From an uncultured virus (IMG/VR IMGVR_UViG_3300044724_004089) (taxonomy: Duplodnaviria; Heunggongvirae; Uroviricota; Caudoviricetes): a DNA stretch of 64,000 nucleotides. Of the stretch, positions 95-50,047 are shown piece after piece. A program made the translations under genes and the position numbers. The notes under the pieces were generated by a model. It was not told the DNA's origin and searched no databases. It saw nothing but the letters and a program-made list of their open reading frames with translations. The stretch lies in IMG/VR virus record IMGVR_UViG_3300044724_004089, one strand, 5' to 3'. Numbering within the stretch: position 1 is the first letter of the stretch; each line of letters starts with the position of its first letter.

Positions 95-634
95 ATGAAA
101 AAAAATAAGAAAAAAAATGAGCATTATGTAGACAATGCAAAGTTTTTAGAGGCGATGAAAGAATACAAAGCATTGTGTGAGGACGCCGAAAAAAACGACA
201 AAGAGAAACCACTTGTAACTAATTATATTGGTGGTTGTTTTTTAAAAATTGCGAATCACTTATCGTATAGACCTAACTTTATTAACTATACGTTTAAAGA
301 TGATATGATATCTGATGGTATAGAAAACTGTTTACAGTATCTTGATAATTTTAATCCAGAAAAATCTAAAAATCCTTTTGCATATTTTACACAGATTATA
401 TACTATGCCTTTATAAGAAGAATACAAAAAGAAAAGAAACAAGTAATAATAAAACAAAAGTTATTAAGAGATTCTAATTTTGATGATTTAACATTGCAAC
501 CATCAGATGATGCTCAATATACAAATCAGTTTACAGAATTCTTGAGAGCAAATGCTACAGAGGAAGAACCAGAAAAGAAAAAGAAAGAACCAAAAAGAAG
601 AAATTTAAAAGGCAAATTAGACGAGTTTATTTAA
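95..634 (+). CDS. gp55: T4-like late transcription sigma factor gp55
   Basis: HYVDN..F, LSYRPNFINYT, MISDGIENCL, NPFAYFTQI motifs; sits upstream of gp47/gp46. Confidence 0.95.
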   Translation: MKKNKKKNEHYVDNAKFLEAMKEYKALCEDAEKNDKEKPLVTNYIGGCFLKIANHLSYRPNFINYTFKDDMISDGIENCLQYLDNFNPEKSKNPFAYFTQIIYYAFIRRIQKEKKQVIIKQKLLRDSNFDDLTLQPSDDAQYTNQFTEFLRANATEEEPEKKKKEPKRRNLKGKLDEFI

Positions 635-2342: not shown

Positions 2343-4026
2343 AAACTTTCTATCTACGGGAAACACACCTATTGAAGTTGACTTTGTAAAATCAAAAACA
2401 ACTTTAATTGTAGGATCAAATGGTTCTGGTAAATCTACTTTACTAGATGCATTGTGTTTTGTTTTATTTAACAAACCATTTAGATTAATAAAAAAAGATC
2501 AGATGATAAACACTATCAATGCATCAGAGTGTGTTGTTGAAGTTGAGTTTCGTGTTGGTACCATACCATATAAAGTTGTTAGATGTATTAAACCAAATAA
2601 GTTTCAAATATACAAAAACAATAAATTAATAAATCAAGATGCTAATAATGTTGATTATCAAAAGTATCTTGAAAAAACTATAATGAAATTAAACTATCGT
2701 TCTTTTATACAAGTTGTAATGTTGGGGTCATCATCATACGAACCCTTTATGAAAATGAGACCAAGATATAGAAGAGAAGTTGTAGAGGAAATATTAGATA
2801 TAAGAGTGTTTGGTTTGATGGATATAAATTTAAGATCACAACAAAGTGATTTACAAAAAAGACTTACAGATGCCAGACATAAAACAGATATATTAAAAAC
2901 AAAGTATGAAACAGAATCAAAATATTTACAATCATTAAAATCAAAAGGTGATTCTTTTAAAGAAGTAAAAGAAAAATCATTACAACAAAATGAAACAAAC
3001 AAAAGAGTATACGAAAAAAAGATAGAACAGTTAAATACAGATTTAGCAGTACATAATGAAAAGGTAAAAGATAAGTCACTGTTTGATAGAAAGTTATTAC
3101 AATTAAATAAATTAGAAACAAAGATAACACAGAACCTAGAAACACATAAAAAGACTTTAAACTTTTTTGAAAAGAATGATACTTGTCCTACTTGCACACA
3201 ACCTATAGATGAAAATTTTAAACACGATAAATGTGGCACAACAAAAACTAAAATTGATAAACTGTCAACAGGTCTAAAAGAATTACTACAAGAGATAACA
3301 CAAACAGAAGAAAAGGTAAAAGGATTTACAGGTATTACAAATAAGATTAGTGATATAAGAGTTGATATTGCCAAGATAAATAACTCTTTAGAAAACATAG
3401 AACATAATAGTCAAAGTATAAATGAAGAGTTAAGAAACTTTAGCAGTGAAAATGATATACAATCTTTAGAAACCAACCTAAACAAAATGAAAGAAGATAT
3501 TGAAGTAGCAGTTGTTGAGTTAGATAAGATTGTAGAAGAAAAAGGTTACGTTGATATACTAAGAGAAATACTAAACGATACAGGTGCAAAAGCAAAGATT
3601 ATAAAAAAGTATGTACCCATAATGAATAATCTTATCAATCAGTATTTACAATCTATGGATTTCTTTGTATCATTTAATTTAGACGAAGAGTTTAATGAAA
3701 CAGTAAAAAGTAGATTTAGAGATAACTTTAACTACAATAGTTTTAGTGAAGGTGAAAAGATGAGAATAGACTTGGCATTGTTGTTTACCTGGAGAGCAAT
3801 TGCTAAAATGAAAAACTCTACTAATACTAATCTGTTAATATTAGATGAAATATTTGATAGCAGTTTAGACGGACAAGGTACAGATGATTTCTTTAAGATA
3901 ATAGGAACATTAAAGAACGAAAACATATTTGTAATATCGCATAAGGGTGATATATTATTTGATAAGTTTACAAATATAATTAAGTATGAAAAATATAAAA
4001 ACTTTACAAGACTGGAGGCAGTATGA
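2314..4026 (+). CDS. gp46: recombination endonuclease ATPase subunit gp46 (Rad50/SbcC-like)
   Basis: Walker A GSNGSGKST, zinc hook CPTC, FSEGEK signature, LILDE, ISH. Confidence 0.96.
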   Translation: MITFVKLKYKNFLSTGNTPIEVDFVKSKTTLIVGSNGSGKSTLLDALCFVLFNKPFRLIKKDQMINTINASECVVEVEFRVGTIPYKVVRCIKPNKFQIYKNNKLINQDANNVDYQKYLEKTIMKLNYRSFIQVVMLGSSSYEPFMKMRPRYRREVVEEILDIRVFGLMDINLRSQQSDLQKRLTDARHKTDILKTKYETESKYLQSLKSKGDSFKEVKEKSLQQNETNKRVYEKKIEQLNTDLAVHNEKVKDKSLFDRKLLQLNKLETKITQNLETHKKTLNFFEKNDTCPTCTQPIDENFKHDKCGTTKTKIDKLSTGLKELLQEITQTEEKVKGFTGITNKISDIRVDIAKINNSLENIEHNSQSINEELRNFSSENDIQSLETNLNKMKEDIEVAVVELDKIVEEKGYVDILREILNDTGAKAKIIKKYVPIMNNLINQYLQSMDFFVSFNLDEEFNETVKSRFRDNFNYNSFSEGEKMRIDLALLFTWRAIAKMKNSTNTNLLILDEIFDSSLDGQGTDDFFKIIGTLKNENIFVISHKGDILFDKFTNIIKYEKYKNFTRLEAV

Positions 4027-4574
4027 AATTAGTATCACCAGACGATCCAATATTAAAACAACCATTACCAACTTTTGATGATTCGCAACTAGAAGACTAT
4101 GGTTATAAAGACAGACAAAAACTATCTGACGATATGTTTGAATTTATATCAAAGAATGGTGGTATAGGTCTTACTGCTAATCAAATAGGTATGAGATTAA
4201 ATATGATGGTGATAGGTGGACACCCTAGTATAGAAAATGGTATGAAACTAACGTGTTTTAATCCTGTTATAATAAGCACAAGTGCTGAACAAGTAACTAT
4301 GAAAGAGGGTTGTTTATCATATCCATTCTTATTTTTTAATATAAAAAGACCTAGAAAAGTGGTGGTTAAATACAGAGATGTAGATGATAAACTACAAGAA
4401 GGTCACCTTGACGGATATATGAGTAGAATATTTCAACACGAGTATGATCACACAGAGGGTAGAACTATGCTTGACAATGTTTCAAAATTCAGATATAATC
4501 TAGCAATGAAAAAAGCAGAAAAATTAATGAAGAAACATATGAGAGAAATGAAAAATGCCGAGAAAGACAACTAA
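4023..4574 (+). CDS. def: peptide deformylase
   Basis: GIGLTANQIG, EGCLS, QHEYDH motifs. Confidence 0.95.
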   Translation: MKLVSPDDPILKQPLPTFDDSQLEDYGYKDRQKLSDDMFEFISKNGGIGLTANQIGMRLNMMVIGGHPSIENGMKLTCFNPVIISTSAEQVTMKEGCLSYPFLFFNIKRPRKVVVKYRDVDDKLQEGHLDGYMSRIFQHEYDHTEGRTMLDNVSKFRYNLAMKKAEKLMKKHMREMKNAEKDN

Positions 4575-4797
4575 AACTTATGTTCACGTCAATCAACACG
4601 TTATACGAAGTAATAAAAAACATAACAAAAACGAACCAGTTATCACAGTTAAGAAAGGTTCTAAAAACACTTACTGTCACGAAGTCAAAATACTCGGTCC
4701 TAGTACCGTGGTTTATGGCGGTAATGATAAACCTCTTCTTTCTTGTGGTGCTAGAGTTGTCATTTCGACTGAATCAGATGTAGAGATTGTCAAATGA
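4555..4797 (+). CDS. hypothetical phage protein
   Basis: Overlapping, coupled ORF with coding-like composition; LLSCGARV C-terminal motif. Confidence 0.6.
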   Translation: MPRKTTKTYVHVNQHVIRSNKKHNKNEPVITVKKGSKNTYCHEVKILGPSTVVYGGNDKPLLSCGARVVISTESDVEIVK

Positions 4798-5933
4798 CAT
4801 ACAAACCATATAAACTACAAGATGTAATAGATGCATCTAATAAAGAACTATTTACAGTCATATCTACATTTGCAGGTGGTGGTGGTTCATCAACAGGTTA
4901 TAGATTAGCAGGTGCTAAAATACTTGCAATCAATGAGTTTGTTGATTCAGCAGTAGACACATATAAAGCAAACTATCCACAGACACCTGTATTACCTGGC
5001 GACATAAAAGAATTGACAGGTGAAGATTTATTAAAAACTGCAGGTGTTCAAAAAGGTGAACTAGATATTTTAGATGGTAGTCCACCTTGTTCTGCATTTA
5101 GTATATCAGGTAAAAGAGAAAAGGGTTGGAACTCAACAAAGAAATATTCTGATGACAAACAAGTAGAAAATATAGAAGATTTATTTTTTGAGTACATTAG
5201 AATAGCAAATGATATACAAGCAAAGGTTGTTATAGGTGAAAACGTAGCAGGTATTATGGTTGGTGATGCTAAAAAATATTTCAATAGAATCATAAATGCT
5301 TTTGATAAAATAGGTTATGAGGCGGTTGGTAAAGTGATGAACGCCGCTGACTTTGGAACACCACAAGCAAGACAAAGATGTTTTTTTGTAGCAGTAAGAA
5401 AAGATGTGATGGATACATTAGGGTTAAACTTTATGACAATGGAGGGTGAATTATATCCTAAACCAAATAGCACTCAACCTACGTTAAAAGATGCTATTGA
5501 TGATTTAGAGAATGATAAAGAAGAAGAACAGATGTTACTTGATTTTGTTCAAGGTTCTTTTCAAAAGAAGTGGATTGAATTGTTACCATTTAATCCAGAT
5601 AAACATAGAAAACCAAGTGATCCAGAATTTATAGACATAAATCCTAAAAGATCAATGTTTAATATGATTAGACCAGCACCAAACTTACCTTGTCCGACAG
5701 TTACACAAGCAGGTCAAAAGAAAGGTTTGTCTGGTGTGTTTCACTATAATAGTAATCGTAAATTAACGATAAAAGAATTAAAAAGAGTTATGGGTTTACC
5801 AGATGATTTTAAACTTGAAGGTGACTTTGATCAACAAGCAGAAAGAGTTGGTAGAATGGTAGCACCTCTAATGATGAAAGAGTTATCTGGTACCATATAT
5901 AAAAATATAATTAAACCATTTAATGATAGATAA
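4794..5933 (+). CDS. C5-cytosine DNA methyltransferase homolog, probable DNA cytosine carboxymethyltransferase (CmoX-like)
   Basis: Motif I FAGGGG, IV GSPPC, VI ENV, VIII QARQR; motif X reads VGRMV instead of GNxV; adjacent to a CmoA homolog. Confidence 0.85.
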   Translation: MTYKPYKLQDVIDASNKELFTVISTFAGGGGSSTGYRLAGAKILAINEFVDSAVDTYKANYPQTPVLPGDIKELTGEDLLKTAGVQKGELDILDGSPPCSAFSISGKREKGWNSTKKYSDDKQVENIEDLFFEYIRIANDIQAKVVIGENVAGIMVGDAKKYFNRIINAFDKIGYEAVGKVMNAADFGTPQARQRCFFVAVRKDVMDTLGLNFMTMEGELYPKPNSTQPTLKDAIDDLENDKEEEQMLLDFVQGSFQKKWIELLPFNPDKHRKPSDPEFIDINPKRSMFNMIRPAPNLPCPTVTQAGQKKGLSGVFHYNSNRKLTIKELKRVMGLPDDFKLEGDFDQQAERVGRMVAPLMMKELSGTIYKNIIKPFNDR

Positions 5934-6753
5934 ATTACTTCAAGATATAGTTGAAAAAGAATGCAAAGATAATGATGTAGCAGTTTTATTATCTGGTGGT
6001 GTCGATAGTAATAGTGTTTTATTTACTGCTAATCGTCTAGGTAAAATAGTGCATTGTTATTCTTTTCATTTAGACACAGGTTCATCATATGATTCTATAA
6101 AAGCACAAGAAGTATGTAATAAGTTTAATTTTGATTTAACACTAATAGAAGTGCCAACAAATAATTTAGAAAATGATTTTATAACACTTGCTGAAAAGTA
6201 TAAGTGTCAAAAGAAAACACATTTTGAATGCACGTTTCCATTTATGTATGTGTTTCCAAAAATAAAAGAAAAGTATGTGCTATCTGGTTGGGCGGCAGAT
6301 GGTCATTTTGGTTTAAGTAAAAAAGCAAGTTTGCATTACAAACACCCCAAAGAAAAGTTTGATAAGTTTAGAAGAGATTATTTTTCTGTAGAAAATCCAG
6401 TAGGGGTTAGACAAATAGAAATGTTATGCAAAGAACACAATAAAGTATTATCAGTTCCATATCTAGATAAAAAAGTTTTTGATTATTTCATACAGTTTGA
6501 CTGGGACACACTCAATAAACCCAAAGAAAAATACGAAGTTAGAAAATGCTTTCCAGAGTTTAATGAGATAAATCTTAAAAATCATTTAAATTTACAATTA
6601 ATTTCTAGGGTTGACAAAATATTTGAAACCTTGTTAACTAGTGAAAAGATTAATATTGGAAAGAGAAAAAGAGTTATGGATATTTGTAAAGACTGGTATA
6701 ATGTAAATAAAAACTTAAATAATCCAACTATACTTGAGGACAAGTTATTATGA
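5923..6753 (+). CDS. asparagine synthase-like ATP-dependent amide ligase (CmoY-like)
   Basis: PP-loop LLSGGVDS, LSGWAADGHFG, VPYLD..V, KPKEK; no glutaminase domain at 276 aa. Confidence 0.75.
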   Translation: MIDKLLQDIVEKECKDNDVAVLLSGGVDSNSVLFTANRLGKIVHCYSFHLDTGSSYDSIKAQEVCNKFNFDLTLIEVPTNNLENDFITLAEKYKCQKKTHFECTFPFMYVFPKIKEKYVLSGWAADGHFGLSKKASLHYKHPKEKFDKFRRDYFSVENPVGVRQIEMLCKEHNKVLSVPYLDKKVFDYFIQFDWDTLNKPKEKYEVRKCFPEFNEINLKNHLNLQLISRVDKIFETLLTSEKINIGKRKRVMDICKDWYNVNKNLNNPTILEDKLL

Positions 6754-7421
6754 AATTTACATTTGCACAATCAGAAGAAGGATTTGATAATCACATAGAT
6801 AAGTCTATTAGAGGTTATGCTGACTTATGGGGTGATGTTGTCAACATTGGTAAATACTTTATAGAAGATGATACTAACGTTGTAGATATAGGTTGTTCTA
6901 CAGGTAAACTTCAAAAGTCTATGATAAAATTGTATGAAGAACATATACCCAATGCTAAATACGTTGGTGTAGAAATAGAAGAAGACTTTTATAAAGATTA
7001 TCCTGTTGATGAATTGAAATACTCTAATCTAAAGTATTTTAGAGATGATGTAAGAAACTTTAAATTTACAAACTGTAGTTATGTAACATCTTTATTTACA
7101 TTACAATTTATGTCACCAAAGTCTAGAAAAGAAGTAATACAAAGTATATACAATGGTTTAAATACAGGTGGTGCATTTGTATTTTCTGAAAAAGTATTTG
7201 CACAAAACCCTAGAGTACAAGATATGATGACATTTATGTATTATGATCATAAAAGAAAAAACTTTACAGAAAAAGAAATATTAGATAAAGAAGTCCAGTT
7301 AAGACATATGATGAAACCAAACACAAAAAATGAATTGATAAAAATGTGTACTGATGCTGGATTTGAAACACAAACATTTTGGCAAAATTATAACTTTATA
7401 GGAGTGATAGCACTTAAATGA
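6750..7421 (+). CDS. cmoA: CmoA-like carboxy-SAM synthase
   Basis: FDNHIDKSIRGY, DIGCSTG, FTLQF, FSEK, QNYNF match the CmoA family. Confidence 0.8.
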   Translation: MKFTFAQSEEGFDNHIDKSIRGYADLWGDVVNIGKYFIEDDTNVVDIGCSTGKLQKSMIKLYEEHIPNAKYVGVEIEEDFYKDYPVDELKYSNLKYFRDDVRNFKFTNCSYVTSLFTLQFMSPKSRKEVIQSIYNGLNTGGAFVFSEKVFAQNPRVQDMMTFMYYDHKRKNFTEKEILDKEVQLRHMMKPNTKNELIKMCTDAGFETQTFWQNYNFIGVIALK

Positions 7422-8245
7422 AACAATTCTTTATACCAAATACTGTTACAGAATTTAGCAATGAAAATCCATTTGTATTGATAGCAGGTCCTTGTCAAGT
7501 TGAAAGTAAAGAACACGCAATACAAATATGTGGTTCATTATTAGAAATATCAATGTTATACAATATACCTTTAGTATATAAATCATCTTTTGATAAAGCA
7601 AATAGAACAAGTATCAATTCACAAAGAGGATTAGGTTTAGAAAAGTCTTTACAAGTATTTGAAGAAATACAAAAACAATTTAATGTACCTGTTGTTACAG
7701 ACGTTCACGAACCAGGTCAATGTAAAGAAGTAGCATCAGTGGTTAATATGTTACAGATACCAGCATTTTTATGTAGACAAACTGATTTACTTGTAGCATC
7801 AGCAGAAACACAAAAAACTGTAATGATTAAAAAAGGTCAGTTTATGGCACCTTGGGATATGAAAAATGTCATAGAAAAAATAAGTCATATAAATGATAAG
7901 ATAGTGTTATGTGAAAGAGGTACAAGTTTTGGTTATAATAGATTAGTTGCTGATATGACTTCTCTACCGATAATGAAAGAAACAGGTTATCCTGTTGTGT
8001 TTGATGCAACACATTCAGTACAACAACCAGGTGGTATGGGTGCAACATCTGGAGGTAATCGTGAGTTTGTACCTGTGTTGGCGAGATGTGCTATGACAAT
8101 AGGTATAGCAGGTATATTTATGGAAGTGCATCAAGATCCAGACAATGCACCAAGTGATGGACCTAATATGTTAAAGTTAGAAGATTTACAAGATTTACTA
8201 AAACAGTTATACGACATAGACGAAAGCACGAAAGGTGGGTTTTAA
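7418..8245 (+). CDS. kdsA: 3-deoxy-D-manno-octulosonate 8-phosphate (KDO8P) synthase
   Basis: AGPC, KSSFDKANRTS, QIPAFLCRQTDL, KKGQF, FDATHSVQ, SDGPN. Confidence 0.95.
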   Translation: MKQFFIPNTVTEFSNENPFVLIAGPCQVESKEHAIQICGSLLEISMLYNIPLVYKSSFDKANRTSINSQRGLGLEKSLQVFEEIQKQFNVPVVTDVHEPGQCKEVASVVNMLQIPAFLCRQTDLLVASAETQKTVMIKKGQFMAPWDMKNVIEKISHINDKIVLCERGTSFGYNRLVADMTSLPIMKETGYPVVFDATHSVQQPGGMGATSGGNREFVPVLARCAMTIGIAGIFMEVHQDPDNAPSDGPNMLKLEDLQDLLKQLYDIDESTKGGF

Positions 8246-9387
8246 TGGATAAAGAGGTCAAAAGAATATATGATGCAGAAATAAATAGACAATCACAAAC
8301 CATAGAGTTAATAGCATCTGAAAACTTTGCAAGTCAGGCAGTAAAGAAATTATGTGGTTCAGAGTTTACAAATAAGTATGCTGAAGGTTATCCAGGTAAG
8401 AGATACTACAATGGTTGTGAGTATATGGATCAAATAGAACAACTTGCAATAGATGAATTAAAAAAGTTATATAACTGTGAATATGCTAACGTGCAACCTC
8501 ATTGTGGTGCAAATGCAAATACTGCCGTCTATCAAGCATTTTTGAAACCAGGTGATACAATACTTGGTATGGATTTAGCATCAGGTGGTCATTTAAGTCA
8601 CGGTTCTAAACCTAATATATCAGGTAAAATATATGATGCACATTATTATGGTGTCGATAAAGATGGTTGGTTAGATTACAATGCAATTAAAGAACAAGCA
8701 AAGAAACTAAAACCAAAGATGATAGTTGCAGGTGCTAGTGCATACTCTAGACAAATACATTGGTATATCTTCAGAGAGATAGCAGATGAGGTAGGTGCAT
8801 ATCTATTATGTGATATGGCACATTACTCTGGACTAATAGCAGGTGGTAGTTATGATAATCCAGTTCCTCACGCAGACGCAGTTACATCAACTACACATAA
8901 AACATTGAGAGGTCCAAGAGGTGGTATAATCTTATGGGATAATGATGAACATACTAAAAAGATAAATTCTGCTATCTTTCCTGGTACACAAGGTGGTCCT
9001 TTGATGAATATGATCGCCTCAAAAGCACAAGCATTTAAAGAGGCGAATACAACAGAATTTAGACAATACATTCAAAATGTAATCAATAATGCAAAAGCAA
9101 TGGCAGAAGTATTCATAGAGAATGATTTTAATGTATTGACAGGTGGTACTGATAGTCATATGATGCTGATAGATTTAAGTGATAAAAAGTATTCTGGTAG
9201 AGAATCAGCAGATAAACTAGAAGAAATGGGTATTACAGTCAATAAGAATGGTATACCTAATGATCCTAGAAGTTTTGTAGAAACATCAGGTATTCGTATA
9301 GGAACTGCCGCCGAAACAACAAGAGGTAGACCAGCAAGTTGGTTTCGTGATGTTGCTAAAAGAATAATAAACATCATTACACTGTGA
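8245..9387 (+). CDS. glyA: serine hydroxymethyltransferase
   Basis: LIASEN, NKYAEGYPGKRYY, GGHLSHG, STTHKTLRGPRGG (PLP lysine), FPGTQGGP. Confidence 0.97.
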   Translation: MDKEVKRIYDAEINRQSQTIELIASENFASQAVKKLCGSEFTNKYAEGYPGKRYYNGCEYMDQIEQLAIDELKKLYNCEYANVQPHCGANANTAVYQAFLKPGDTILGMDLASGGHLSHGSKPNISGKIYDAHYYGVDKDGWLDYNAIKEQAKKLKPKMIVAGASAYSRQIHWYIFREIADEVGAYLLCDMAHYSGLIAGGSYDNPVPHADAVTSTTHKTLRGPRGGIILWDNDEHTKKINSAIFPGTQGGPLMNMIASKAQAFKEANTTEFRQYIQNVINNAKAMAEVFIENDFNVLTGGTDSHMMLIDLSDKKYSGRESADKLEEMGITVNKNGIPNDPRSFVETSGIRIGTAAETTRGRPASWFRDVAKRIINIITL

Positions 9388-9579: not shown

Positions 9580-9942
9580 ATGTTAAATTATGAAATGAAC
9601 TACTTTTCAAATGTGAAGTTTTACTATGATACGAATAGCATCAGTTCAAAGTATCTCGAAAATCTTTATAAGATTTCTTATAACTTCGTTGATTATAAGA
9701 TTCGTACCTCGAGTATGCGTGTTTTTGAAAAGAATTTTAAGATGCAAATGCAAAAGTTAATCAATACTTATTTTGATAAGTCTATTCAATCTCAAAACTA
9801 CATTGTTAAGATTAAGCAAGTAAAGATTGAAAATAATGATGAACAGACGATTTACATTGATAAGACTGTAGATTCTGATGAACTTCTTGTAAATTTACTA
9901 AAGAATTCTAGTAACATTGTAAGCATTTTACCAAAGTTTTAG
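9580..9942 (+). CDS. hypothetical early protein
   Basis: ORF with strong RBS (GAAAGGA) behind an early promoter. Confidence 0.7.
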   Translation: MLNYEMNYFSNVKFYYDTNSISSKYLENLYKISYNFVDYKIRTSSMRVFEKNFKMQMQKLINTYFDKSIQSQNYIVKIKQVKIENNDEQTIYIDKTVDSDELLVNLLKNSSNIVSILPKF

Positions 9943-9985: not shown

Positions 9986-10033
9986 ACATTTTTCTGATAA
10001 CATTACATTTTAACTAATTTGAAAGGGACAATT

Positions 10034-11164
10034 ATGTCAAAACTATATGATGAAAACGTATTCTCCTACTACCAAGAGAGTAATAGCAAAAATCTGATAA
10101 CAGTAGACAAAGAAACATTATTGAATTTATTAATGATTAAAGATGCTTATATTAATCTAGAGAAAAACTATAATGTAAAAGTAACTAAAGATTTACTTGA
10201 TGTTAATGATATTGCAATAGTAGAAAGCAATAATATTGCTCAAGCATACGGAAATGACCAATCTATTATAAATGAGTATATGAATTTGTTTGCTACACGA
10301 ACTTATAATCCTTTTTATGCATTTCCTCCTGTTGTAGTTTCAACAAAACATATGAAAAATATATTAGTGTTGTATGCTACTTTAGGTGGATTTAAGAGAA
10401 TTAAAGCACTAAAAAGAGCAGTTGAAAAAGGATTGTGTGAAAATAAAATGATACCTGTAATTAAAGTTGATATCGAAGAAACAGATGAAAGAGTGATAAG
10501 AGAAATAGAACTAAAAATTAACAGTGTTGAAAATGCTGAAGATTCAGTTAAGAAGATTGAAAAAACAACTAGAGATATAGATTCTATTGCTAACTCTGTA
10601 AATGCATATATAAGAGAAGTAAAACTTTTAAATCCTAAAGATGATAATATTCCAGAGAGTGTTTATAGAGATTGTTTGTCTATCTTTGAGTATGATCTAC
10701 AAAAAAGTAAATATAGTTTACCAGACATAATAACTAGATGTAGAAGAAATGTTGGGTGTAAAGTTCCAGTTTTAAAAAGCACTTCAGAGATGACTGATTT
10801 GGCAAGAAATTCATCAAATGTTGAAGATTATTGTAGAGAAAATGGTTTTAAAAAACCTCTTATAGTTGCTTACAATAAGAAAAATGGTGCAATTTCCAAT
10901 AAAGATTTACCATTGAAGTATTTGAACTCAAAACTAAAAGCAGAAAAAGAAAACTATGATGCAATTTTTTGTATCGTTCAACATACAGGTGTGACATCAA
11001 AAGTTGCAAATGAACACAAGAAAAAGTATCTTAATTATGAAAATAGTCAAGAAAGCACTAGTAACAACTTTAAACAAGTTGCTAACAGTAATGTGCCTGT
11101 AATTATGGGTGTTTGTTTAGATGATGAAATTACTTTGCAAAGTGAGAATTACAATGCAGAATAG
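10034..11164 (+). CDS. hypothetical protein with ParB/Srx-like domain
   Basis: PPVVV...YATLGGFKRIKAL...IPVIKV...VEN resembles the ParB N-terminal fold; RBS GAAAGGGA favours the ATG at 10034. Confidence 0.45.
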   Translation: MSKLYDENVFSYYQESNSKNLITVDKETLLNLLMIKDAYINLEKNYNVKVTKDLLDVNDIAIVESNNIAQAYGNDQSIINEYMNLFATRTYNPFYAFPPVVVSTKHMKNILVLYATLGGFKRIKALKRAVEKGLCENKMIPVIKVDIEETDERVIREIELKINSVENAEDSVKKIEKTTRDIDSIANSVNAYIREVKLLNPKDDNIPESVYRDCLSIFEYDLQKSKYSLPDIITRCRRNVGCKVPVLKSTSEMTDLARNSSNVEDYCRENGFKKPLIVAYNKKNGAISNKDLPLKYLNSKLKAEKENYDAIFCIVQHTGVTSKVANEHKKKYLNYENSQESTSNNFKQVANSNVPVIMGVCLDDEITLQSENYNAE

Positions 11165-11750
11165 TTTAAATTATTTCAATGCAACAAACCCCAAAGTTAT
11201 AGGATTGTTAATAGATCAAGATAAATCAATAAGAAATAATGTTTTAAAACTTAAATCGGTAAGAAAGACAATGATCTGGAATAAACCATATCGTGATAAG
11301 TGTGTGCAGACAGATGATGTACACGGATTAAGAACAATTTATCACGATATATTCTTTGGTAAAATTAGTGAATGTAAAATATATACAGGTGTTCAAAGTG
11401 TTGCAGATTTAGAAAGTAATAATACAAAATCTACTGGAGAACATATTTTTCCTTCGTTTGGGATGGCACCATATTTTTATGATAATGTAAATAATTGGTC
11501 TGAAGAGAAGTTTTTAAAAAATGCATTACCATTATGTCTTGTTAGTAAAACAACAAGTCAACAAAACACAGATTTATCAAATCAAAAAAATGTTTTGATA
11601 CTAGATAAGTATGAAGTCGCAAATATAGAATGTTATTTTTGTGATGAATACTCTTCTCAAATTGGTTTACCTAAATGTATAAAGGATTTATTACCAATAG
11701 AGTTAATTGAATATGATAGAAAAAATATCAAAAAAGGGGTTGACATTTGA
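11154..11750 (+). CDS. hypothetical protein, possible HNH-like nuclease
   Basis: GEHIFP...LCLV...QN..LSN resembles a His-Me finger (DUF1524-like); overlaps the upstream ORF. Confidence 0.4.
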   Translation: MQNSLNYFNATNPKVIGLLIDQDKSIRNNVLKLKSVRKTMIWNKPYRDKCVQTDDVHGLRTIYHDIFFGKISECKIYTGVQSVADLESNNTKSTGEHIFPSFGMAPYFYDNVNNWSEEKFLKNALPLCLVSKTTSQQNTDLSNQKNVLILDKYEVANIECYFCDEYSSQIGLPKCIKDLLPIELIEYDRKNIKKGVDI

Positions 11751-17135: not shown

Positions 17136-19622
17136 ATGAATTTTTACAAGAATGTGATTGTACACAGAGGCAAACTTCTGATTAGAGGTGTGTTGAATGG
17201 TAAAGAGTATCAAGAAAAACTTGACTTCAGTCCCACACTTTATGTATTGTCTAATGAACAAACAGAATACAAAACACTTCAAGGTCAAAACTTAAAACCT
17301 ATACGACTTAATTCTATTGCTGATGCTAAAAGATTTAAGAAAGAAGTAGAAACACAGAACTCACCAATCTTTGGTTTAGATAGATTTCACTATCAGTATA
17401 TTGGTCAAGAATATCCTGGTAGAATAGAATGGTCTAGAGAATACATTAAAATATTTACATTAGATATCGAAACAACTTGTGAGGCAGGTTTTCCTGATGT
17501 TGAAAACCCAACAGAAGAATTAATTTGTATTACAATTAAAAATCAATCTAACAAACAAATAATTACTTGGGGTGTTGGTGACTTCTATCACGATAGAGAT
17601 GATGTGACTTATGTAAAATGTAAAAGTGAAAATGAATTGTTAATGCAGTTTATGATGTTCTGGACCAAAAATTATCCTGACGTAATTTCCGGGTGGAATA
17701 CTAAATTTTTCGATTTACCATATCTAATGAATAGAATAAGACATTTACACGGTGATAAAGTAATCAATAAATTATCGCCTTGGAAACTAATTCAAAGAGA
17801 TGAAATAGAAGTTAGAGGTAAAGTACAAACTGTTTATAACTTGTATGGTATTGTTATGTTAGATTATCTTGATCTATATAGACAATACATACCACAGAAA
17901 CCTGAAAGTTATAAACTAGATCACATTGGTGAAATTGAACTAGGTCAAAATAAAAATGAAAACCCTTACGATACATTTAAAGAGTTTTATGAAAAAGATT
18001 TTCAAAAGTTTGTAGACTACAATATACAAGATGTTGAACTTGTTGATGCTCTTGAAGATAAGTTACGTCTTATAGATTTAGCATTAACTATTGCGTATGA
18101 AAGTAAAGTAAACTATGGTGATATATTTTCACAAGTTAGATTATGGGATACGTTGATTGCAAATCACTTAATGACAAAAAAGATATGTGTTCCACCACGA
18201 GAAGATCAAGTAAAAGAAACAAAGTATGTTGGTGCATATGTAAAAGAACCCAAACCTGGTTTATTTAAATGGGTCGTATCATTCGATATTAATTCTCTAT
18301 ACCCACATATTATTATTCAGTATAATATATCACCAGAAAAAATCATAGGTGCAGAGAAAGGATTGTCTGTAGAAAAAATGTTAGAAGGTAAATCTATGTT
18401 ATCTTATCTAGAAACAGAGGGTGCTTGTATCACCCCAAACGGTGCAAAGTTTAAAACAGATAGTCAAGGTTTCTTACCAGAGATGATGGAAACAATGTAT
18501 CAAGAACGTGTCATATACAAAAATAAAATGCTTGATGCTAAAAAACAAAAAGAAAAAACAAAAGATGTTAAATTAGATAATGAAATATCACGATATCACA
18601 ATATTCAATGGGCGAGAAAGATTGCATTAAATAGTGCTTATGGTGCCATTGGTAATCAATACTTTAGATATTATGATGTAAAACAAGCAAGTGGTATTAC
18701 AACTGCTGGTCAGTTTATTATTCGTTTTATAGAAAATAAAATGAATGAGTATTTAAACAACGTGTTACAAACACAAGGTAAAACTGATTATGTTGTTGCG
18801 TCAGATACCGATAGTATATATGTTGTTTTAGATAAACTTGTAGAGAAAACTTGTCAAGGTAAAACCAATGACCAAATATTAAATTTTTTAAATAAAGTAT
18901 GCGATAGTAAATTAGAACCATACATAGAAAAGTGTTTTGATGAACTAGCAAGATACACTAATGCATACAAAAATGCTATGGTTATGAAACGTGAAGTTAT
19001 ATCCAATAAAGCAATATGGGTTGCAAAGAAAAGATATATGATGAATGTTTTAGATGAAGAGGGTGTTCGTCTTTCTAAACCTAAATTAAAAATTATGGGT
19101 ATTGAGGCAGTAAAATCTTCAACACCTCAAGTGTGTCGTGGTAAAATTAAAGAGGCGATAAACATTATTATGAATAAAGATGAGAGTGCTTTGCAAAACT
19201 TTATTCAAGATTTTAAGCAAGAGTATTTTAAATTATCTGCTGAACAAGTTTCTTTCCCTAGGTCTTGTAATAATCTTAAAAAGTATAGGTCATCTAAAGA
19301 TATTTTTATCAAAGGGTCACCTATTCACGTTAAGGGTGCTTTGATATATAATTATCAAATACAAAAAATGAAATTGCAAAACAAGTATCCTTACATACAA
19401 GAGGGTGATAAGATTAAGTTTGTTAAGTTACTAGAGCAAAATCCATTTAGATTTGATGTTATAAGTTATGTAACTAAATTACCTACAGAATTCAAACTAC
19501 AGAAATGCATTGATTATGAAGTACAATTTCAAAAGACATTTCTTGATCCTATGCGTTTCATACTTGAGGCAATTGGTTGGTCAGCAGAAAAACAAGCAAC
19601 ACTGGAGGATTTTTTTCAATGA
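17136..19622 (+). CDS. gp43: family B DNA polymerase gp43
   Basis: Exonuclease DIET, GWN..FD, YNIQD; polymerase SFDINSLYP, KIALNSAYG, SDTDS. Confidence 0.97.
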   Translation: MNFYKNVIVHRGKLLIRGVLNGKEYQEKLDFSPTLYVLSNEQTEYKTLQGQNLKPIRLNSIADAKRFKKEVETQNSPIFGLDRFHYQYIGQEYPGRIEWSREYIKIFTLDIETTCEAGFPDVENPTEELICITIKNQSNKQIITWGVGDFYHDRDDVTYVKCKSENELLMQFMMFWTKNYPDVISGWNTKFFDLPYLMNRIRHLHGDKVINKLSPWKLIQRDEIEVRGKVQTVYNLYGIVMLDYLDLYRQYIPQKPESYKLDHIGEIELGQNKNENPYDTFKEFYEKDFQKFVDYNIQDVELVDALEDKLRLIDLALTIAYESKVNYGDIFSQVRLWDTLIANHLMTKKICVPPREDQVKETKYVGAYVKEPKPGLFKWVVSFDINSLYPHIIIQYNISPEKIIGAEKGLSVEKMLEGKSMLSYLETEGACITPNGAKFKTDSQGFLPEMMETMYQERVIYKNKMLDAKKQKEKTKDVKLDNEISRYHNIQWARKIALNSAYGAIGNQYFRYYDVKQASGITTAGQFIIRFIENKMNEYLNNVLQTQGKTDYVVASDTDSIYVVLDKLVEKTCQGKTNDQILNFLNKVCDSKLEPYIEKCFDELARYTNAYKNAMVMKREVISNKAIWVAKKRYMMNVLDEEGVRLSKPKLKIMGIEAVKSSTPQVCRGKIKEAINIIMNKDESALQNFIQDFKQEYFKLSAEQVSFPRSCNNLKKYRSSKDIFIKGSPIHVKGALIYNYQIQKMKLQNKYPYIQEGDKIKFVKLLEQNPFRFDVISYVTKLPTEFKLQKCIDYEVQFQKTFLDPMRFILEAIGWSAEKQATLEDFFQ

Positions 19623-20773
19623 TAAAATTATATAATGACGATTGTTTAAAGATAGTAGAAAAATTAGTAGATGAAGGTATACAAGTTGATTCGATTGTAA
19701 CTGACCCACCATATCATCTGACATCTATTGTAGAAAGATATGGTAAAGAAGGTTCTGCACCAGCAAAAGACAAAGATGGTTTATTTCAAAGACAGTCAAA
19801 AGGTTTTATGGGTAAAGAATGGGATGGTGGTGATATTGCGTTTAGAGAAGAAACTTGGGAACTTTTTATGAAAGTATTGAAACCAGGTGGTCATCTACTT
19901 GCGTTCTCTAGTAGTCGAACATATCATAGAATGGCAGTTGCGATAGAAGATGCTGGTTTCAGTATTCGTGATCAGATTATGTGGTTATATGGTAGTGGGT
20001 TTCCGAAGAGTTTAAATATAGGAAAAGCAGTAGATAAGAAATTAGGTAATAAAAGAGAAGTAATTGGAACTAAAGAATGTGGTTATCAAGTTAGTATTTC
20101 TAAAACTAGAAAAGAACAAGGTAATAGACCAAATTTAACTAATGCAACTAAAGAAGTGATTGTCGACAAGGGAGATACAGAATATGAGGGTTGGGGAACT
20201 GCATTGAAACCAGCACACGAACCTATCGTTCTTGCAAGAAAACCACTATCCGAAAAATCTATCGTTGCAAATGTACTAAAACATAAAACTGGTGGAATAC
20301 ATATAGATGCGAGTAGAATTGAATACGCAGATGAAAATGATAGAAGTGGGTGGCATAAAACTGGTGGTGGTGGAAAAGGTTATATGGACACAAGTACATT
20401 TAAAATAAGAAAGATAACACCAGAGGAAATACAAGAGAGAACAAAGAATGGTAGGTTTCCAGCAAATGTAATGCATAATGGATTAGAAGAAGATTGGGCG
20501 AGATACTTCTATTGTGCTAAAGCATCAAAGTCTGAAAAGGGTGATAATCCACACCCAACAGTAAAACCATTAAAGTTAATGAAATACTTATGTAAATTAA
20601 TTACACCAAAGGGTGGGACAGTATTAGACCCATTTATGGGAAGTGGTTCTACTGGTATAGCATCAAAAGACGAAGGGTTTGAGTTTATAGGTATTGAAAG
20701 AGAAAAAGAGTATTTTGAGATTGCAGAAAAAAGAATAAATATAACATCACCTTTAGAGAGTTTTATGAAATGA
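19619..20773 (+). CDS. N6-adenine/N4-cytosine DNA methyltransferase (beta class)
   Basis: DPPY near N-terminus; HPTVKP and DPFMGSGSTG near C-terminus. Confidence 0.92.
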   Translation: MIKLYNDDCLKIVEKLVDEGIQVDSIVTDPPYHLTSIVERYGKEGSAPAKDKDGLFQRQSKGFMGKEWDGGDIAFREETWELFMKVLKPGGHLLAFSSSRTYHRMAVAIEDAGFSIRDQIMWLYGSGFPKSLNIGKAVDKKLGNKREVIGTKECGYQVSISKTRKEQGNRPNLTNATKEVIVDKGDTEYEGWGTALKPAHEPIVLARKPLSEKSIVANVLKHKTGGIHIDASRIEYADENDRSGWHKTGGGGKGYMDTSTFKIRKITPEEIQERTKNGRFPANVMHNGLEEDWARYFYCAKASKSEKGDNPHPTVKPLKLMKYLCKLITPKGGTVLDPFMGSGSTGIASKDEGFEFIGIEREKEYFEIAEKRINITSPLESFMK

Positions 20774-20859
20774 AATTTAAAAAATTAAAAATGAGAATAA
20801 GATTATTTTTATCTATCTTTAAGAAGAGAAGAGAAAAAGGTAATCCTTGGATATATTAG
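20770..20859 (+). CDS. small basic peptide MKFKKLKMRIRLFLSIFKKRREKGNPWIY (not in ORF track)
   Basis: ATGA overlap with the MTase stop; 29 aa; P-aromatic-I-Y tail like peptides that accompany carbamoyltransferases. Confidence 0.55.
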   Translation: MKFKKLKMRIRLFLSIFKKRREKGNPWIY

Positions 20860-20860
20860 T

Positions 20861-21010
20861 ATGTGGAAATATTGGTGTAAAGCAATCGGTACAAAGGCAT
20901 TTGACGAGGATAATAAAGCAGATAAAGTAGCAATTATTAGAACTTGCTGGATTATACTGCATATTGTTACTTGCATTGCAATTATATCTAACACATTGAG
21001 GCAGTGGTAA
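20861..21010 (+). CDS. small membrane protein MWKYWCKAIGTKAFDEDNKADKVAIIRTCWIILHIVTCIAIISNTLRQW (not in ORF track)
   Basis: 49-aa ORF exactly filling the gap; one hydrophobic segment. Confidence 0.65.
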   Translation: MWKYWCKAIGTKAFDEDNKADKVAIIRTCWIILHIVTCIAIISNTLRQW

Positions 21011-22318
21011 TTGATAACATTAGGAATCTCAGAGGGGTTTCATAATTCGTCTGTCTGCTATGTAGAGGACGGTGAAATATTGTTTGCTTCAGAATCAGAA
21101 AGATATACTGGTAATAAAAATGATAGGTGGGTACCAGGTGACATATTAGATATGTATGAATGTGACAATATGGTTTATTATGAAAAACCATTTAAAAAAA
21201 ATATTAGAAGACTTTTAGCAGGTCAGTCGTGGGAAAAAACTAGATTTAAATATGATAACTACTACTCACATCATTTATCTCACGCCGGCGCAGGTTATTA
21301 CACTGCACCATTCGAAGATTGTAATATATTAGTTATAGATGCTATTGGTGAATGGGAAACAATAACAATATGGGACAATCTAAAAAAGATTAGGTCGTGG
21401 TCGTATCCATATTCTCTAGGATTATTATATTCAGCAGTAACACAATATTTAGGATTTAAACCAAACGAAGAAGAATATATTGTTATGGGTATGTCAGCAT
21501 TTGGTGAACCCATTTATAATTATGAATATTTGTTATATGAAAATAATCATAGAGGTATAAAATTTTTAAAAGGTAAACCAGAAGATATCGCCGCCTCAAT
21601 ACAAAAATTATATGAAGATGAGTTGTTAAAATTGGTAAAGATGTGTCCGAAGAAAAACTTAATACTTATGGGTGGTTGTGCTTTAAATTGTGTTGCTAAT
21701 AGTAAAATCAAAGGTAAGAACATTTGGATTATGCCATCACCCGGTGATGCAGGTAGTTCTTTAGGTGCATCAGCATTGAAACAAGGTAAGATTAATTGGA
21801 AACACCCATATTTAGGTTATGATATTAGCAGACATATAAACCCTAAAGAAGTTGTAGATGATTTATTAGAAAATAAAATAGTAGGTGTAGCAAATGGTAG
21901 AGCAGAATTTGGACCTAGAGCATTAGGTAATCGTTCTTTATTAGGTGACCCTAGATATGATATCAAAGATACTGTTAACACAATTAAAAGAAGACAAAAG
22001 TTTAGACCTTTTGCACCTGCAATATTAGAAGAGTTTGCAGATGAATATTTTGAAGGTCCTATGAATCGTTATATGCAGTTTGTATCAAAAGCAAAACACG
22101 ACTACAAATCAGTAACTCACGTTGACAATACTGCAAGAGTTCAAATAGTAGAAAAAGATTGTAAATCTGTAATAAGACCTATACTTGAAGAGTTTTATGA
22201 AAGAACTAAAGTTCCTATGTTGTTAAATACATCTTTAAATATAAAAGGTAAACCTATGGTAAATACAGAGAAAGATGCTAATAAGTTTACAGAAAGATAT
22301 AATGTAAATGTCTGGTAA
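21011..22318 (+). CDS. carbamoyltransferase (NodU/CmcH family)
   Basis: HNSS, HHLSHA, DAIGE, GGCALNC, EFGPRALGNRS, FRPFAP, HVDNTARVQ, LNTSLN. Confidence 0.93.
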   Translation: MITLGISEGFHNSSVCYVEDGEILFASESERYTGNKNDRWVPGDILDMYECDNMVYYEKPFKKNIRRLLAGQSWEKTRFKYDNYYSHHLSHAGAGYYTAPFEDCNILVIDAIGEWETITIWDNLKKIRSWSYPYSLGLLYSAVTQYLGFKPNEEEYIVMGMSAFGEPIYNYEYLLYENNHRGIKFLKGKPEDIAASIQKLYEDELLKLVKMCPKKNLILMGGCALNCVANSKIKGKNIWIMPSPGDAGSSLGASALKQGKINWKHPYLGYDISRHINPKEVVDDLLENKIVGVANGRAEFGPRALGNRSLLGDPRYDIKDTVNTIKRRQKFRPFAPAILEEFADEYFEGPMNRYMQFVSKAKHDYKSVTHVDNTARVQIVEKDCKSVIRPILEEFYERTKVPMLLNTSLNIKGKPMVNTEKDANKFTERYNVNVW

Positions 22319-48414: not shown

Positions 48415-48955
48415 TTACAGTTTAAATAGTCCAGCAGTTTGTATAAATGAAGATAAATTAGAAGATGTTGATATTTCAAAAGTTACTTTTCATTTCTTAA
48501 CTAAAAAGAAAAAGTATCTTGGCAATATTGCTAAAGGTGTAACAGGTTATGAATATCCATTGTATAAAACACCTGAAGAAAGATTTGATGCTATATCTAA
48601 TTGGGTATTCGACCTAATAAGTGATATACATAGTAATGTATATATTGAAGGATATTCCTATGGTTCAAAAGGTCAAGGTTTATTTCAGATAGCAGAAAAT
48701 GGTGGTTTACTTAAACATAAATTGTGGAAATCATCAAAAGTAGAATTTAATATATTAGTACCAAGTGTAATCAAAAAGAGAGCAACTGGTAAAGGTAACG
48801 CAGACAAACAAAAAATGTATGAGCAATTTATGAAAGATGGTGGACAAGATTTAGTATCTGTTTTGGGTATGAATAAATTAGATAATCCTGTTACTGACAT
48901 TGTTGATTCATACTATATTATGAGGACAGGATATGAAGATAGGTATAGTTACTAG
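48383..48955 (+). CDS. RuvC-like Holliday junction resolvase
   Basis: GIDYS, IEGYS, KKRATGKGNADK, DIVDS. Confidence 0.8.
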   Translation: MMLKTRTIGIDYSLNSPAVCINEDKLEDVDISKVTFHFLTKKKKYLGNIAKGVTGYEYPLYKTPEERFDAISNWVFDLISDIHSNVYIEGYSYGSKGQGLFQIAENGGLLKHKLWKSSKVEFNILVPSVIKKRATGKGNADKQKMYEQFMKDGGQDLVSVLGMNKLDNPVTDIVDSYYIMRTGYEDRYSY

Positions 48956-49706
48956 TTTTAATGAAAAGTTATATCATTATTATGCACATAGATTTTTAGA
49001 ATCATACAATCTACCATTTAATCTACACATTTATCACGAAGGTTGGACACCTGAAGATTTTCCATTAAGAGATAATATACATTACATTGATATCAATTCA
49101 GGTAAAAATGGAAATGAGTTAAGAAAATTTAAAGCAAGGATGAGTGGTTACAATGTAGATAGTGTTGTACCCGGCGAACCACAAAAGATAATTCACGGAA
49201 CAAATTATAAAAAAGACGGCATTAGATTTGCTTACAAAGTTTTTGCTAAAACAGATTTGATGACAAATGGTAAAACAAATTATGATTATGTATTTTGGAT
49301 TGATGCTGATATGATATTTAAAAAATCATTCAATGCAAAAGATGTTGTAGAAAAGTTTTTACCAGGAGATTATCAAATCTCTCATATACACAGACCAACA
49401 TATTATAGTGAATGTGGTTTTGTAGGATATAATTTAAGACACTGGCAAACAAGAGTATTTGTTCAAAGATTTAGAGAGATGTATACTCATTTAAATCTAT
49501 TAACAGAAAAAGAGTGGCACGATAGTTATTTGTTTGATGTAGTTAGAAAAAAATTAACAAAAGAATTAAACGGTGATATAAAGTTTTATAATTTATCACC
49601 AACTATAAGAAAAGTTGGCAATCCTTGGCCAGATACACCAATGGCAGAATATATGGACCATCTAAAAGGTAAAGCAAGAAAAGATGCAGGAGAAATGTTA
49701 AAATGA
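48933..49706 (+). CDS. GT-A glycosyltransferase-like protein
   Basis: RFAYKV, WIDAD, ECGF, WHDS, DHLKG. Confidence 0.65.
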   Translation: MKIGIVTSFNEKLYHYYAHRFLESYNLPFNLHIYHEGWTPEDFPLRDNIHYIDINSGKNGNELRKFKARMSGYNVDSVVPGEPQKIIHGTNYKKDGIRFAYKVFAKTDLMTNGKTNYDYVFWIDADMIFKKSFNAKDVVEKFLPGDYQISHIHRPTYYSECGFVGYNLRHWQTRVFVQRFREMYTHLNLLTEKEWHDSYLFDVVRKKLTKELNGDIKFYNLSPTIRKVGNPWPDTPMAEYMDHLKGKARKDAGEMLK

Positions 49707-50047
49707 AAGCAGGTAAAATTTGGGGACAAACAGAACTCATACACGCAAACGGTGTTTTAGAGTTTCATAGAATAGAATATAAAAAAGGTATATCGTGTTC
49801 TAAACACAGACACAAATTTAAATGGAATGGTTTCTTTGTTGAGTCTGGTAAAATGATAGTAAAAGTTTGGAAGAACGATTATGATTTAGTTGATGAAACA
49901 ATATTAGGACCTGGTGACTTTACACAAGTAAAACCAAATGAGTTTCACCAGTTTATAGGTTTAGAAGATGGTGTAGCATTTGAATTATATTGGGCAGAGT
50001 TTGATCACGGTGACATAGAAAGAGAAACAGTTGGTAGTAAAGTATGA
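49703..50047 (+). CDS. cupin protein (sugar isomerase-like)
   Basis: KIWG, CSKHRH, FHQF cupin motifs. Confidence 0.75.
   Translation: MKAGKIWGQTELIHANGVLEFHRIEYKKGISCSKHRHKFKWNGFFVESGKMIVKVWKNDYDLVDETILGPGDFTQVKPNEFHQFIGLEDGVAFELYWAEFDHGDIERETVGSKV

Follow-up and report, generated by a model that had tools for sequence, protein, structure and literature searches.

A probable CmoX-CmoY-CmoA cytosine hypermodification cassette in a pelagimyophage-like phage

Introduction

An uncultured virus (IMG/VR record IMGVR_UViG_3300044724_004089), of which we analysed a stretch of 64,000 nucleotides, hereafter the window, carries three overlapping genes that look like a DNA-modification pathway. They raise the question whether this phage writes a carboxymethyl group onto its cytosines and further amidates it, and if so, with which amine and in which sequence. 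An earlier note, made from the letters of the window, had read the genes as a C5-methyltransferase with Arg in place of the motif X Asn, an amide ligase and a CmoA homologue, and pointed to a natural cyanophage CmoX/CmoY system as already described. That system exists and the architecture is not new. In the Synechococcus phage S-B43, CmoA makes carboxy-S-adenosylmethionine (carboxy-SAM) from S-adenosylmethionine (SAM) and prephenate, and CmoX writes 5-carboxymethylcytosine at GC (Yang et al., Nat Commun 2025, PMC12783734). CmoY then ligates glycine with ATP, and the glycine amide is present in the DNA of the phage itself (PMC12783734).

Here we argue that the region is probably a CmoX-CmoY-CmoA cytosine hypermodification cassette of a pelagimyophage-like phage. 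Thousands of CmoX genes in viral metagenomes are already on record from a published survey (PMC12783734), and the core finding therefore adds one more case to a known system and is not a discovery. With it, the carboxymethylcytosine pathway extends to pelagimyophage-like phages, which are presumed to infect the most abundant bacteria of the sea.

Results

The three genes and their arrangement

The three open reading frames (ORFs) lie on the plus strand where the earlier note had placed them (Table 1), in a T4-like replication module with a G+C content of 31% and with all genes on the same strand. cmoX and cmoY overlap by 11 nt, and cmoY and cmoA by 4 nt (ATGA). Start and stop codons overlap at 5923/5933, 6750/6753, 7418/7421 and 8245, and on this layout cmoX, cmoY and cmoA are predicted to be translationally coupled to each other and also to kdsA and glyA downstream. 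The arrangement is real, because both cassette junctions are bridged by contigs from other public runs with 0-2 differences (X3 records 9, 14; X5 records 17, 20) and the IMG/VR contig L003 holds an identical copy of the region (100% for all genes).

CmoX carries the carboxy-SAM residues

CmoX covers positions 1-323 of the 324 of the DNA_methylase profile (PF00145). The catalytic PC/ENV/QxRxR motifs that the earlier note had seen are in place: SPPCSAFS begins at residue 96 (SPPC at 96-99), GENV at 148 and QARQR at 191, with FAGGGG at residue 26. The best solved structure is SpCmoX of phage S-B43 (8YF3, Table 1), followed by M.HaeIII (2e-24); CmoX and SpCmoX are 52% identical (E 2e-134).

The key residue lies in motif X. 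The gene reads caa gca gaa aga gtt ggt AGA atg gta gca cct, where AGA encodes Arg354 within ERVGRMVAP, so the codon reading upholds the proposed Asn-to-Arg replacement. In the alignment with the characterised carboxymethyltransferase Arg354 falls on SpCmoX R350, the residue that contacts the carboxylate of carboxy-SAM (PMC12783734). Wild-type SpCmoX takes carboxy-SAM only, and its R350N mutant is dead (PMC12783734). All 9 residues named in that paper (SpCmoX F25, E47, F48, D69, S95, P96, P97, C98 and R350) are conserved: F26, E48, F49 and D70 match the cofactor contacts, and S96-P97-P98-C99 with R354 align with S95-C98 and R350. An SPPC motif together with Arg at the R350 position is what the survey used to search for CmoX (PMC12783734), and the window protein has both.

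Across a set of 80 viral loci, whose CmoX relatives are 49-100% identical, motif X has the Arg in 75; the other five give no pattern match, four of them being cut by a contig end. Ten homologues were aligned: G-R-M-V stands in the eight that have CmoA next to them, and G-L-M-V in the other two (L026 and L023), which adjoin a Tet/JBP-like oxygenase gene. Identity to SpCmoX is 120/190 in the catalytic N-terminal part and 41/125 (33%) in the variable target-recognition part. An 8-residue insertion after motif IV, present in SpCmoX and in CmoX proteins of the Y-X-A gene order, is missing from the window protein.

CmoY most likely uses glycine

CmoY is indeed a glutaminase-less Asn-synthase-like PP-loop protein, as first described. 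Its PP-loop SGGVDS occupies residues 24-29, and the roughly 20 residues ahead of it leave no room for a glutaminase domain. The Asn_synthase match (PF00733) spans only profile positions 2-135 of 354. No solved relative of CmoY was found by phmmer. With a low-confidence AlphaFold2 model, Foldseek returned 8SUE, 1CT9, 1MC1 and 1Q15 (E 5e-8 to 1e-6), so that the nearest folds to this model are human and E. coli asparagine synthetases, beta-lactam synthetase and carbapenam synthetase.

Compared with SpCmoY, the protein is 52% identical over 267 residues (BLASTP E 1e-95). In the published network, ligases enter the SpCmoY cluster at E 1e-56 (about 30% identity), and the members of this cluster keep the residues that bind the glycine carboxylate (PMC12783734). 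Because the match of CmoY goes well beyond this threshold, with the caveat that our pairwise E-value is computed differently from the network E-values, we suggest that glycine is most likely its amine. Hence, the amidation proposed in the earlier note gains the homology to SpCmoY, and the amine that it had left open is narrowed to most likely glycine.

CmoA is a divergent carboxy-SAM synthase homologue

The product of the third gene, which directly follows cmoY, receives only generic methyltransferase domains from Pfam. TIGR00740 recognises it at E 7.9e-31, below the curated cut-off, and it is 52% identical to the assayed SpCmoA (E 3e-83), an enzyme about 10 times faster than that of E. coli (PMC12783734). 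The E. coli CmoA structures 4IWN and 4GEK match it at E 3e-26 and 1e-25, respectively. The naming of this gene as a CmoA homologue has thus held.

The three genes in related loci

Among the 80 CmoX loci, 43 contain both CmoA and CmoY, 2 CmoA only, 3 CmoY only and 32 neither. When only the 27 loci with at least 3 kb on both sides of CmoX are counted, both partners are found in 16 and neither in 11. Arg-type CmoX loci with no CmoA or CmoY in the locus are, for example, L143, L155, L172 and L183.

Proposed pathway

We suggest a pathway in three steps, modelled by homology on the enzymes assayed from S-B43. Each window protein is 52% identical to its S-B43 counterpart, which supports the route drawn in the earlier note, from carboxy-SAM via 5-carboxymethylcytosine to an amide.

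Step 1: CmoA would turn SAM and prephenate into carboxy-SAM.

Step 2: CmoX would flip the target cytosine, probably the C of GpC, out of the helix, and Cys99 would attack its C6 atom. The carboxymethyl group of carboxy-SAM, with the carboxylate held by Arg354, would then pass onto C5 with the formation of 5-carboxymethylcytosine.

Step 3: CmoY would adenylate the carboxylate with ATP and join the amine, most likely glycine, to yield 5-glycylcarboxymethylcytosine.

Target site

The target is probably the C of GpC, by analogy with the characterised enzyme. The window holds 1,290 GpC sites, or 13% of its cytosines; if every one were hit, there would be 1,290 adduct sites, and the DNA would be shielded from restriction enzymes reading GC-containing sites. 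A related, TET-associated clade of phage C5-methyltransferases is reported to favour GpC, and the sites of related phage enzymes vary between GpC, GpC[C/T] and others (PMC8256090). The 42%-identical C5-methyltransferases beside Tet/JBP-like oxygenases, as in L026, resemble the GpC-favouring clade as it is described there (PMC8256090).

Several tetranucleotides are missing or scarce in the window: AGCT occurs 0 times, GGCC 3, GCGC 2, CGCG 0 and CATG 0, against an expectation of 74-181 for AGCT, 181-223 for CATG and 6-36 for CGCG, GGCC and GCGC. GATC is depleted, not absent (83 observed vs 181-223 expected). The cmo-less sister phage L014 has AGCT 0, CATG 5 and GATC 1, and a segment of Pelagibacter phage Mosig lacks ACGT and GATC instead. 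These absences look like lineage-specific avoidance of restriction sites. An attempt to infer the CmoX target from them gave no signal, L014 avoiding AGCT, GGCC and GCGC alike without any cmo gene.

Alternative readings

It is very improbable that CmoX is an ordinary 5-methylcytosine methyltransferase and that the CmoA-like protein acts on RNA or a small molecule, with no carboxymethyl-DNA made. The generic Pfam and NCBIfam names and a CmoA score below the family cut-off would suit such a view. It is opposed by the Arg at the motif X Asn, placed exactly as in SpCmoX, which refuses SAM, and by the lack of CmoB in the window. The three genes moreover stand together in 43/80 loci (16/27 of those with long flanks), and the C5-methyltransferase relatives without CmoA, beside a Tet/JBP-like oxygenase, have Leu and not Arg. 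If the route to 5-carboxymethylcytosine is accepted, CmoY could still join another amine (an amino acid, ammonia or a polyamine), or the products of two downstream genes, orf381 and orf209, could tailor the adduct. CmoY is only 52% identical to SpCmoY, other published ligase clusters have different pocket residues with amines unknown (PMC12783734), and orf381 and orf209, both present in the window, stand between cmoA and cmoY in L132 and L134. We nevertheless consider this unlikely: the match to SpCmoY lies far inside a cluster whose members keep the glycine-carboxylate residues (PMC12783734), ammonia derived from glutamine is improbable for a ligase with no glutaminase domain, and orf381 resembles a DNA-binding ParB-type protein rather than a small-molecule enzyme.

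Rather unlikely, too, is that CmoX reads a site longer than, or different from, plain GpC, with far fewer cytosines modified. The 33% identity in the target-recognition region (41/125), the missing insertion after motif IV and the varied sites of related phage C5-methyltransferases (PMC8256090) would agree with it. On the other hand, the sole characterised member recognises GC (PMC12783734), GpC prevails in the TET-associated clade (PMC8256090), and the site statistics of the window point to no other target.

Several observations weigh against the carboxymethylation-glycylation pathway that we prefer. CmoA scores 107.6 bits with TIGR00740 (cut-off 193.3) and 93.5 bits with NF011995 (cut-off 285), and we regard it as a divergent homologue, not an equivalog under NCBIfam's rule. 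In the printed alignment, from which the numbering is taken, the column of E. coli Arg199 holds Glu181, and an Arg (Arg185) appears four residues on, within DKEVQLRHMM (residues 179-188); E. coli Arg199 salt-bridges the cofactor carboxylate (PMC3663124). The CmoY model, made with 7 sequences, is of low confidence (pLDDT 61, predicted local distance difference test), and the assignment of glycine follows from the whole-protein match to SpCmoY. GC specificity is an extrapolation, as the target-recognition part shares only 41/125 residues with SpCmoX, and the near-absence of AGCT, GGCC and GCGC is unexpected, since full GC modification would make their avoidance needless. The promoter proposed below is a consensus match only.

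The missing Arg finds an explanation. The displaced arrangement (Lys-Glu...Leu-Arg) is common to the active SpCmoA and to 8/8 aligned phage CmoAs, and because of this we take the lack of an Arg199 equivalent as a trait of the phage clade, not a defect. Presumably Arg185, one helical turn away, takes over the carboxylate role. The earlier note had cautioned that the carboxylate-binding Arg does not align cleanly; the misalignment stands, and the worry attached to it is resolved by the active SpCmoA, which is arranged alike.

A swappable slot in the replication module

The cassette takes up precisely the space from the orf80 stop to the kdsA start. Two sister phages without cmoXYA, L014 and L048, share with the window gp46, peptide deformylase (PDF), orf80 (94-95% protein identity), kdsA (91-93%) and glyA (96-98%). 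DNA homology with both ends at the ATGA at 4794-4797 and restarts at the kdsA ATG at 7418. In this slot L014 (5929-8177) has an Asp/Asn beta-hydroxylase-like gene and a 362-residue gene whose product carries SPPY and resembles an N6/N4 methylase (with no match in Pfam). L048 (6855-8174) has a DruA/DUF4338 gene, as in Mosig, which carries other genes in the orf80-kdsA interval. In two public runs, contigs pass directly from 4785 to 7417 and so leave out precisely the cassette; the support is weak, the shorter side measuring 27-30 nt. We conclude from these sequence comparisons that the cassette can be exchanged as a unit: the slot in the replication module stays fixed, and cmoXYA is one of several cargoes that alternate in it.

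As gp46 lies upstream in 48/80 CmoX loci and PDF in 40/80, this slot is a common home of cmoX. The X-Y-A order of the window recurs in six loci (L136-L141), with CmoX 79-83% identical, and another group of loci has the order Y-X-A between polymerase and UvsX genes. In one X-Y-A relative (L140:8135-9028) an extra ORF of 297 residues with no profile match stands between cmoX and cmoY. The identity of orf80 to the sisters compares with 70-92% for the neighbouring deformylase; orf80 sits between the promoter-like site and cmoX.

Table 1. Features of the window discussed in the text
Feature	Position	Strand	Remarks
late sigma factor	95-634	+	upstream replication-module gene
peptide deformylase (PDF)	4023-4574	+	upstream neighbour
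promoter-like site TTGACA-17-TATAAT	4471..4499	+	within 3' end of peptide deformylase gene, 56 nt upstream of orf80
orf80	4555-4797	+	small conserved ORF, phrog_8676 (function unknown); directly upstream of cmoX
cmoX	4794..5933	+	379 aa, DNA cytosine C5-carboxymethyltransferase homologue; PF00145 E 2.2e-53, 8YF3 E 7.5e-115
cmoX Arg354 codon AGA	5853..5855	+	equivalent of SpCmoX Arg350 (carboxylate contact of carboxy-SAM)
cmoY	5923..6753	+	276 aa, ATP-dependent amide ligase homologue; PF00733 E 9.1e-18
cmoA	6750..7421	+	223 aa, carboxy-SAM synthase homologue; TIGR00740 E 7.9e-31, below curated cut-off
kdsA	7418..8245	+	KDO-8-phosphate synthase; start overlaps cmoA stop; NF003543 417 bits
glyA	8245..9387	+	serine hydroxymethyltransferase, 380 aa; NF000586 568.7 bits
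ORF without family	9580-9942	+	downstream of glyA
orf381	10019..11164	+	divergent ParB/sulfiredoxin-like protein (structure-model matches); candidate accessory gene of this cmo subtype
orf209	11154..11750	+	198 aa from ATG at 11154 (best start; ORF 11121-11750); no known family; candidate accessory gene
DNA polymerase	17136-19622	+	downstream part of replication module

Neighbouring genes and promoter

Upstream of the cassette also lie the genes of the gp47 and gp46 nuclease subunits and of a 2-oxoglutarate (2OG)-Fe(II) oxygenase. Downstream of orf209 follow a small heat-shock protein, sliding clamp, clamp loader, RegA, RimK-like ATP-grasp, DNA polymerase and N6/N4 DNA methylase.

We considered kdsA and glyA as parts of the cassette and rejected this, as L014, L048 and L029 keep kdsA-glyA without cmoXYA. 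Within 38 viral contigs with a glyA relative, cmoXYA is adjacent only in the window's own phage, and its own locus is the only one of the 80 CmoX loci with glyA or kdsA. glyA was not found in S-B43, S-CRM01 or Mosig. On this evidence both genes appear to be co-transcribed resident neighbours and not cassette-specific. KdsA scores above the cut-offs of KDO-8-phosphate synthase models (417 bits with NF003543, cut-off 242, and 397 bits) and at most 134 bits, below the cut-offs, with models of 3-deoxy-D-arabino-heptulosonate-7-phosphate (DAHP) synthase. The idea that it is a DAHP synthase feeding prephenate was rejected on these scores: KdsA is a KDO-8-phosphate synthase and therefore does not feed into the shikimate pathway.

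Being co-transcribed, glyA could add to the glycine pool, and its product, serine hydroxymethyltransferase, may supply CmoY with glycine. SAR11, the presumed host, needs an external source of glycine or serine.

A perfect match to the sigma-70 consensus occurs only once in the window, at the promoter-like site of Table 1 (0.05 expected; at least one in 4/100 shuffles). The same site stands in the same place in the cmo-less sisters L014 and L048. A general promoter scan of the window gave sites no more numerous than in shuffles. We suggest that this site is a candidate early sigma-70-type promoter, which probably reads orf80-cmoX-cmoY-cmoA-kdsA-glyA.

Two other parts of the window also hold modification genes. 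At 19577-22318 an N6/N4 DNA methylase (PF01555, E 9e-34) comes directly after the polymerase and is followed by a carbamoyltransferase (PF16861/PF02543). At 48900-60400 there is a sugar-modification island with glycosyltransferases, a hexapeptide acyltransferase, a GFO/IDH oxidoreductase, a DegT aminotransferase and an FkbM methyltransferase; kdsA may belong functionally with this island.

Candidate accessory genes orf381 and orf209

Downstream of glyA, orf381 and orf209 are missing from L014, the one cmo-less sister showing this interval, where the heat-shock gene directly follows glyA. An exhaustive HMMER search gave only four orf381 relatives, and a scan of viral contigs with their alignment three more loci. 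orf209 directly follows the orf381 homologue in 4/4 loci (window/L131, L132, L133 and L134). L132 and L134 have the order cmoX-cmoA-orf381-orf209-cmoY, with orf209 directly before cmoY; the L133 contig begins at the heat-shock gene, so that the upstream side of the locus lies beyond it. The orf209 family comprises 10 clusters, none with a Pfam domain, of proteins of 180-200 residues.

Neither protein has a sequence match in Pfam, PHROGs, PADLOC or PDB, and word-based homologue searches returned only the proteins themselves. For orf381 there is no Pfam match to ParB_N (PF02195) up to E 5, none in 5 family members, and no ParB in a PDB profile search. Its AlphaFold2 model has pLDDT 69 and a predicted TM-score (pTM) of 0.42. 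Ranks 1-10 and 12 in Foldseek are ParB-like structures (pNOB8 ParB-N at E 1e-4, Caulobacter ParB, PadC and Noc; E 1e-4 to 4e-2), with TM-scores by query of only 0.15-0.23. The structural neighbours in the Atlas are mostly ParB_N clusters, at TM 0.37-0.50. Two models point to a possible ParB/sulfiredoxin-type N-terminal domain. The motifs GG[FY]KR and [IL]EN are invariant in the family, and we take them to resemble ParB boxes. A split system like GmrS/GmrD (ParB-like protein plus His-Me nuclease) was considered for orf381/orf209, and no support for it was found.

We tentatively propose, as a possibility that we ourselves rate as somewhat doubtful, a Cmo subtype in which orf381 and orf209 are two further dedicated genes working with the Cmo enzymes. 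ParBc-domain proteins occur on 1,660 CmoX contigs, their role being unknown (PMC12783734), and according to a 2026 study a phage thymine dioxygenase requires a ParB-like activator to work on double-stranded DNA (PMC13229309). By analogy with the latter, orf381 may bring CmoX or CmoY to DNA or activate them there. A further, undescribed step may come from orf209, so that the modified base could end up different from that of S-B43, or placed elsewhere. The two candidates, one ParB-like and one of unknown family, are not characterised in the published description of the system.

Lineage and host

Pelagibacter phage Mosig EXVC030M has the most similar DNA polymerase (73.8% identity), followed by cyanophages and Methylophilales phages at about 50%, and its gene order from sigma factor to polymerase recurs in the window. 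PDF within a DNA-metabolism operon is described as a core trait of pelagimyophages (PMC7029224). Judged by these markers, the phage is an uncultured T4-like, pelagimyophage-like one, and its host is probably SAR11. CmoA relatives occur in 70 phage records and CmoY relatives in 58, none of them from a Pelagibacter phage. Assigning the host via glyA was given up, its bacterial relatives being at most 60% identical and of mixed taxa.

Whole or in part, the stretch occurs in 20 listed runs belonging to 16 studies; most are labelled as metagenomes of estuaries, the sea or seawater, and no RNA dataset is listed. The survey in PMC12783734 has a set of 5,615; the IMG/VR sample number does not occur in supplement 4 of that paper.

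Comparison with known systems

A known phage system outside the Cmo family combines a C5-methyltransferase with a TET/JBP dioxygenase and a glycosyltransferase (Burke et al., PNAS 2021, PMC8256090). It shares with the proposed pathway the post-replicative modification of cytosine at C5, mostly at GpC, and the use of the base as a handle for tailoring. The C5-methyltransferases belong to a related clade, L026 and L023 being 42% identical to the window CmoX. There, however, methyl is transferred, and the handle is an oxygenase-made hydroxymethyl, not a carboxylate (PMC8256090); motif X has Leu in L026 and L023. At L026:280-3684 (also in L023 and L028) the C5-methyltransferase with ARIGLMVAP precedes a Tet/JBP-like 2OG oxygenase and a 419-residue ORF, and about 5 kb further downstream lies a glyA relative. 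This locus is probably the known methylation-oxidation-tailoring pathway (PMC8256090).

M.MpeI N374K is similar in that a basic residue at the motif X Asn lets a C5-methyltransferase use carboxy-SAM (PMC12783734). It differs in being engineered, in its CG target, in having Lys and not Arg, and in having no partner CmoA or ligase.

The E. coli CmoA/CmoB pathway to cmo5U in tRNA is related through CmoA, as the matches to 4IWN and 4GEK indicate. As we read the alignment, the SAM contacts Tyr39, Asp62, Gly64, Ser66, Asp117 and Phe137 of the E. coli enzyme (PMC3663124) correspond to Y23, D46, G48, S50, D100 and F120 of the window protein. In contrast, E. coli Arg199, Asn90 and Asn132 correspond to Glu181, Ile76 and Leu115. 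The window has no CmoB, and the proposed acceptor is DNA cytosine.

The closest counterpart is S-B43, a T4-like aquatic myophage like the phage of the window. Both have the same three families (about 52% identity each), the motif X Arg, SPPC, the carboxy-SAM contacts, a glutaminase-less ligase and the displaced CmoA Arg. However, the gene order is X-Y-A in the window and A-Y-X in S-B43, and the cassette stands between PDF/orf80 and kdsA in the replication module, whereas in S-B43 it follows the primase-helicase gene. The lineages also differ: the window polymerase is 74% identical to that of Mosig and about 50% to those of cyanophages, and the G+C content is 31% versus 40% in S-B43. The target-recognition region of the window CmoX is 33% identical to that of SpCmoX and lacks the 8-residue insertion. 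Finally, unlike S-B43, the subtype in the window is linked to the ParB-like and orf209 genes.

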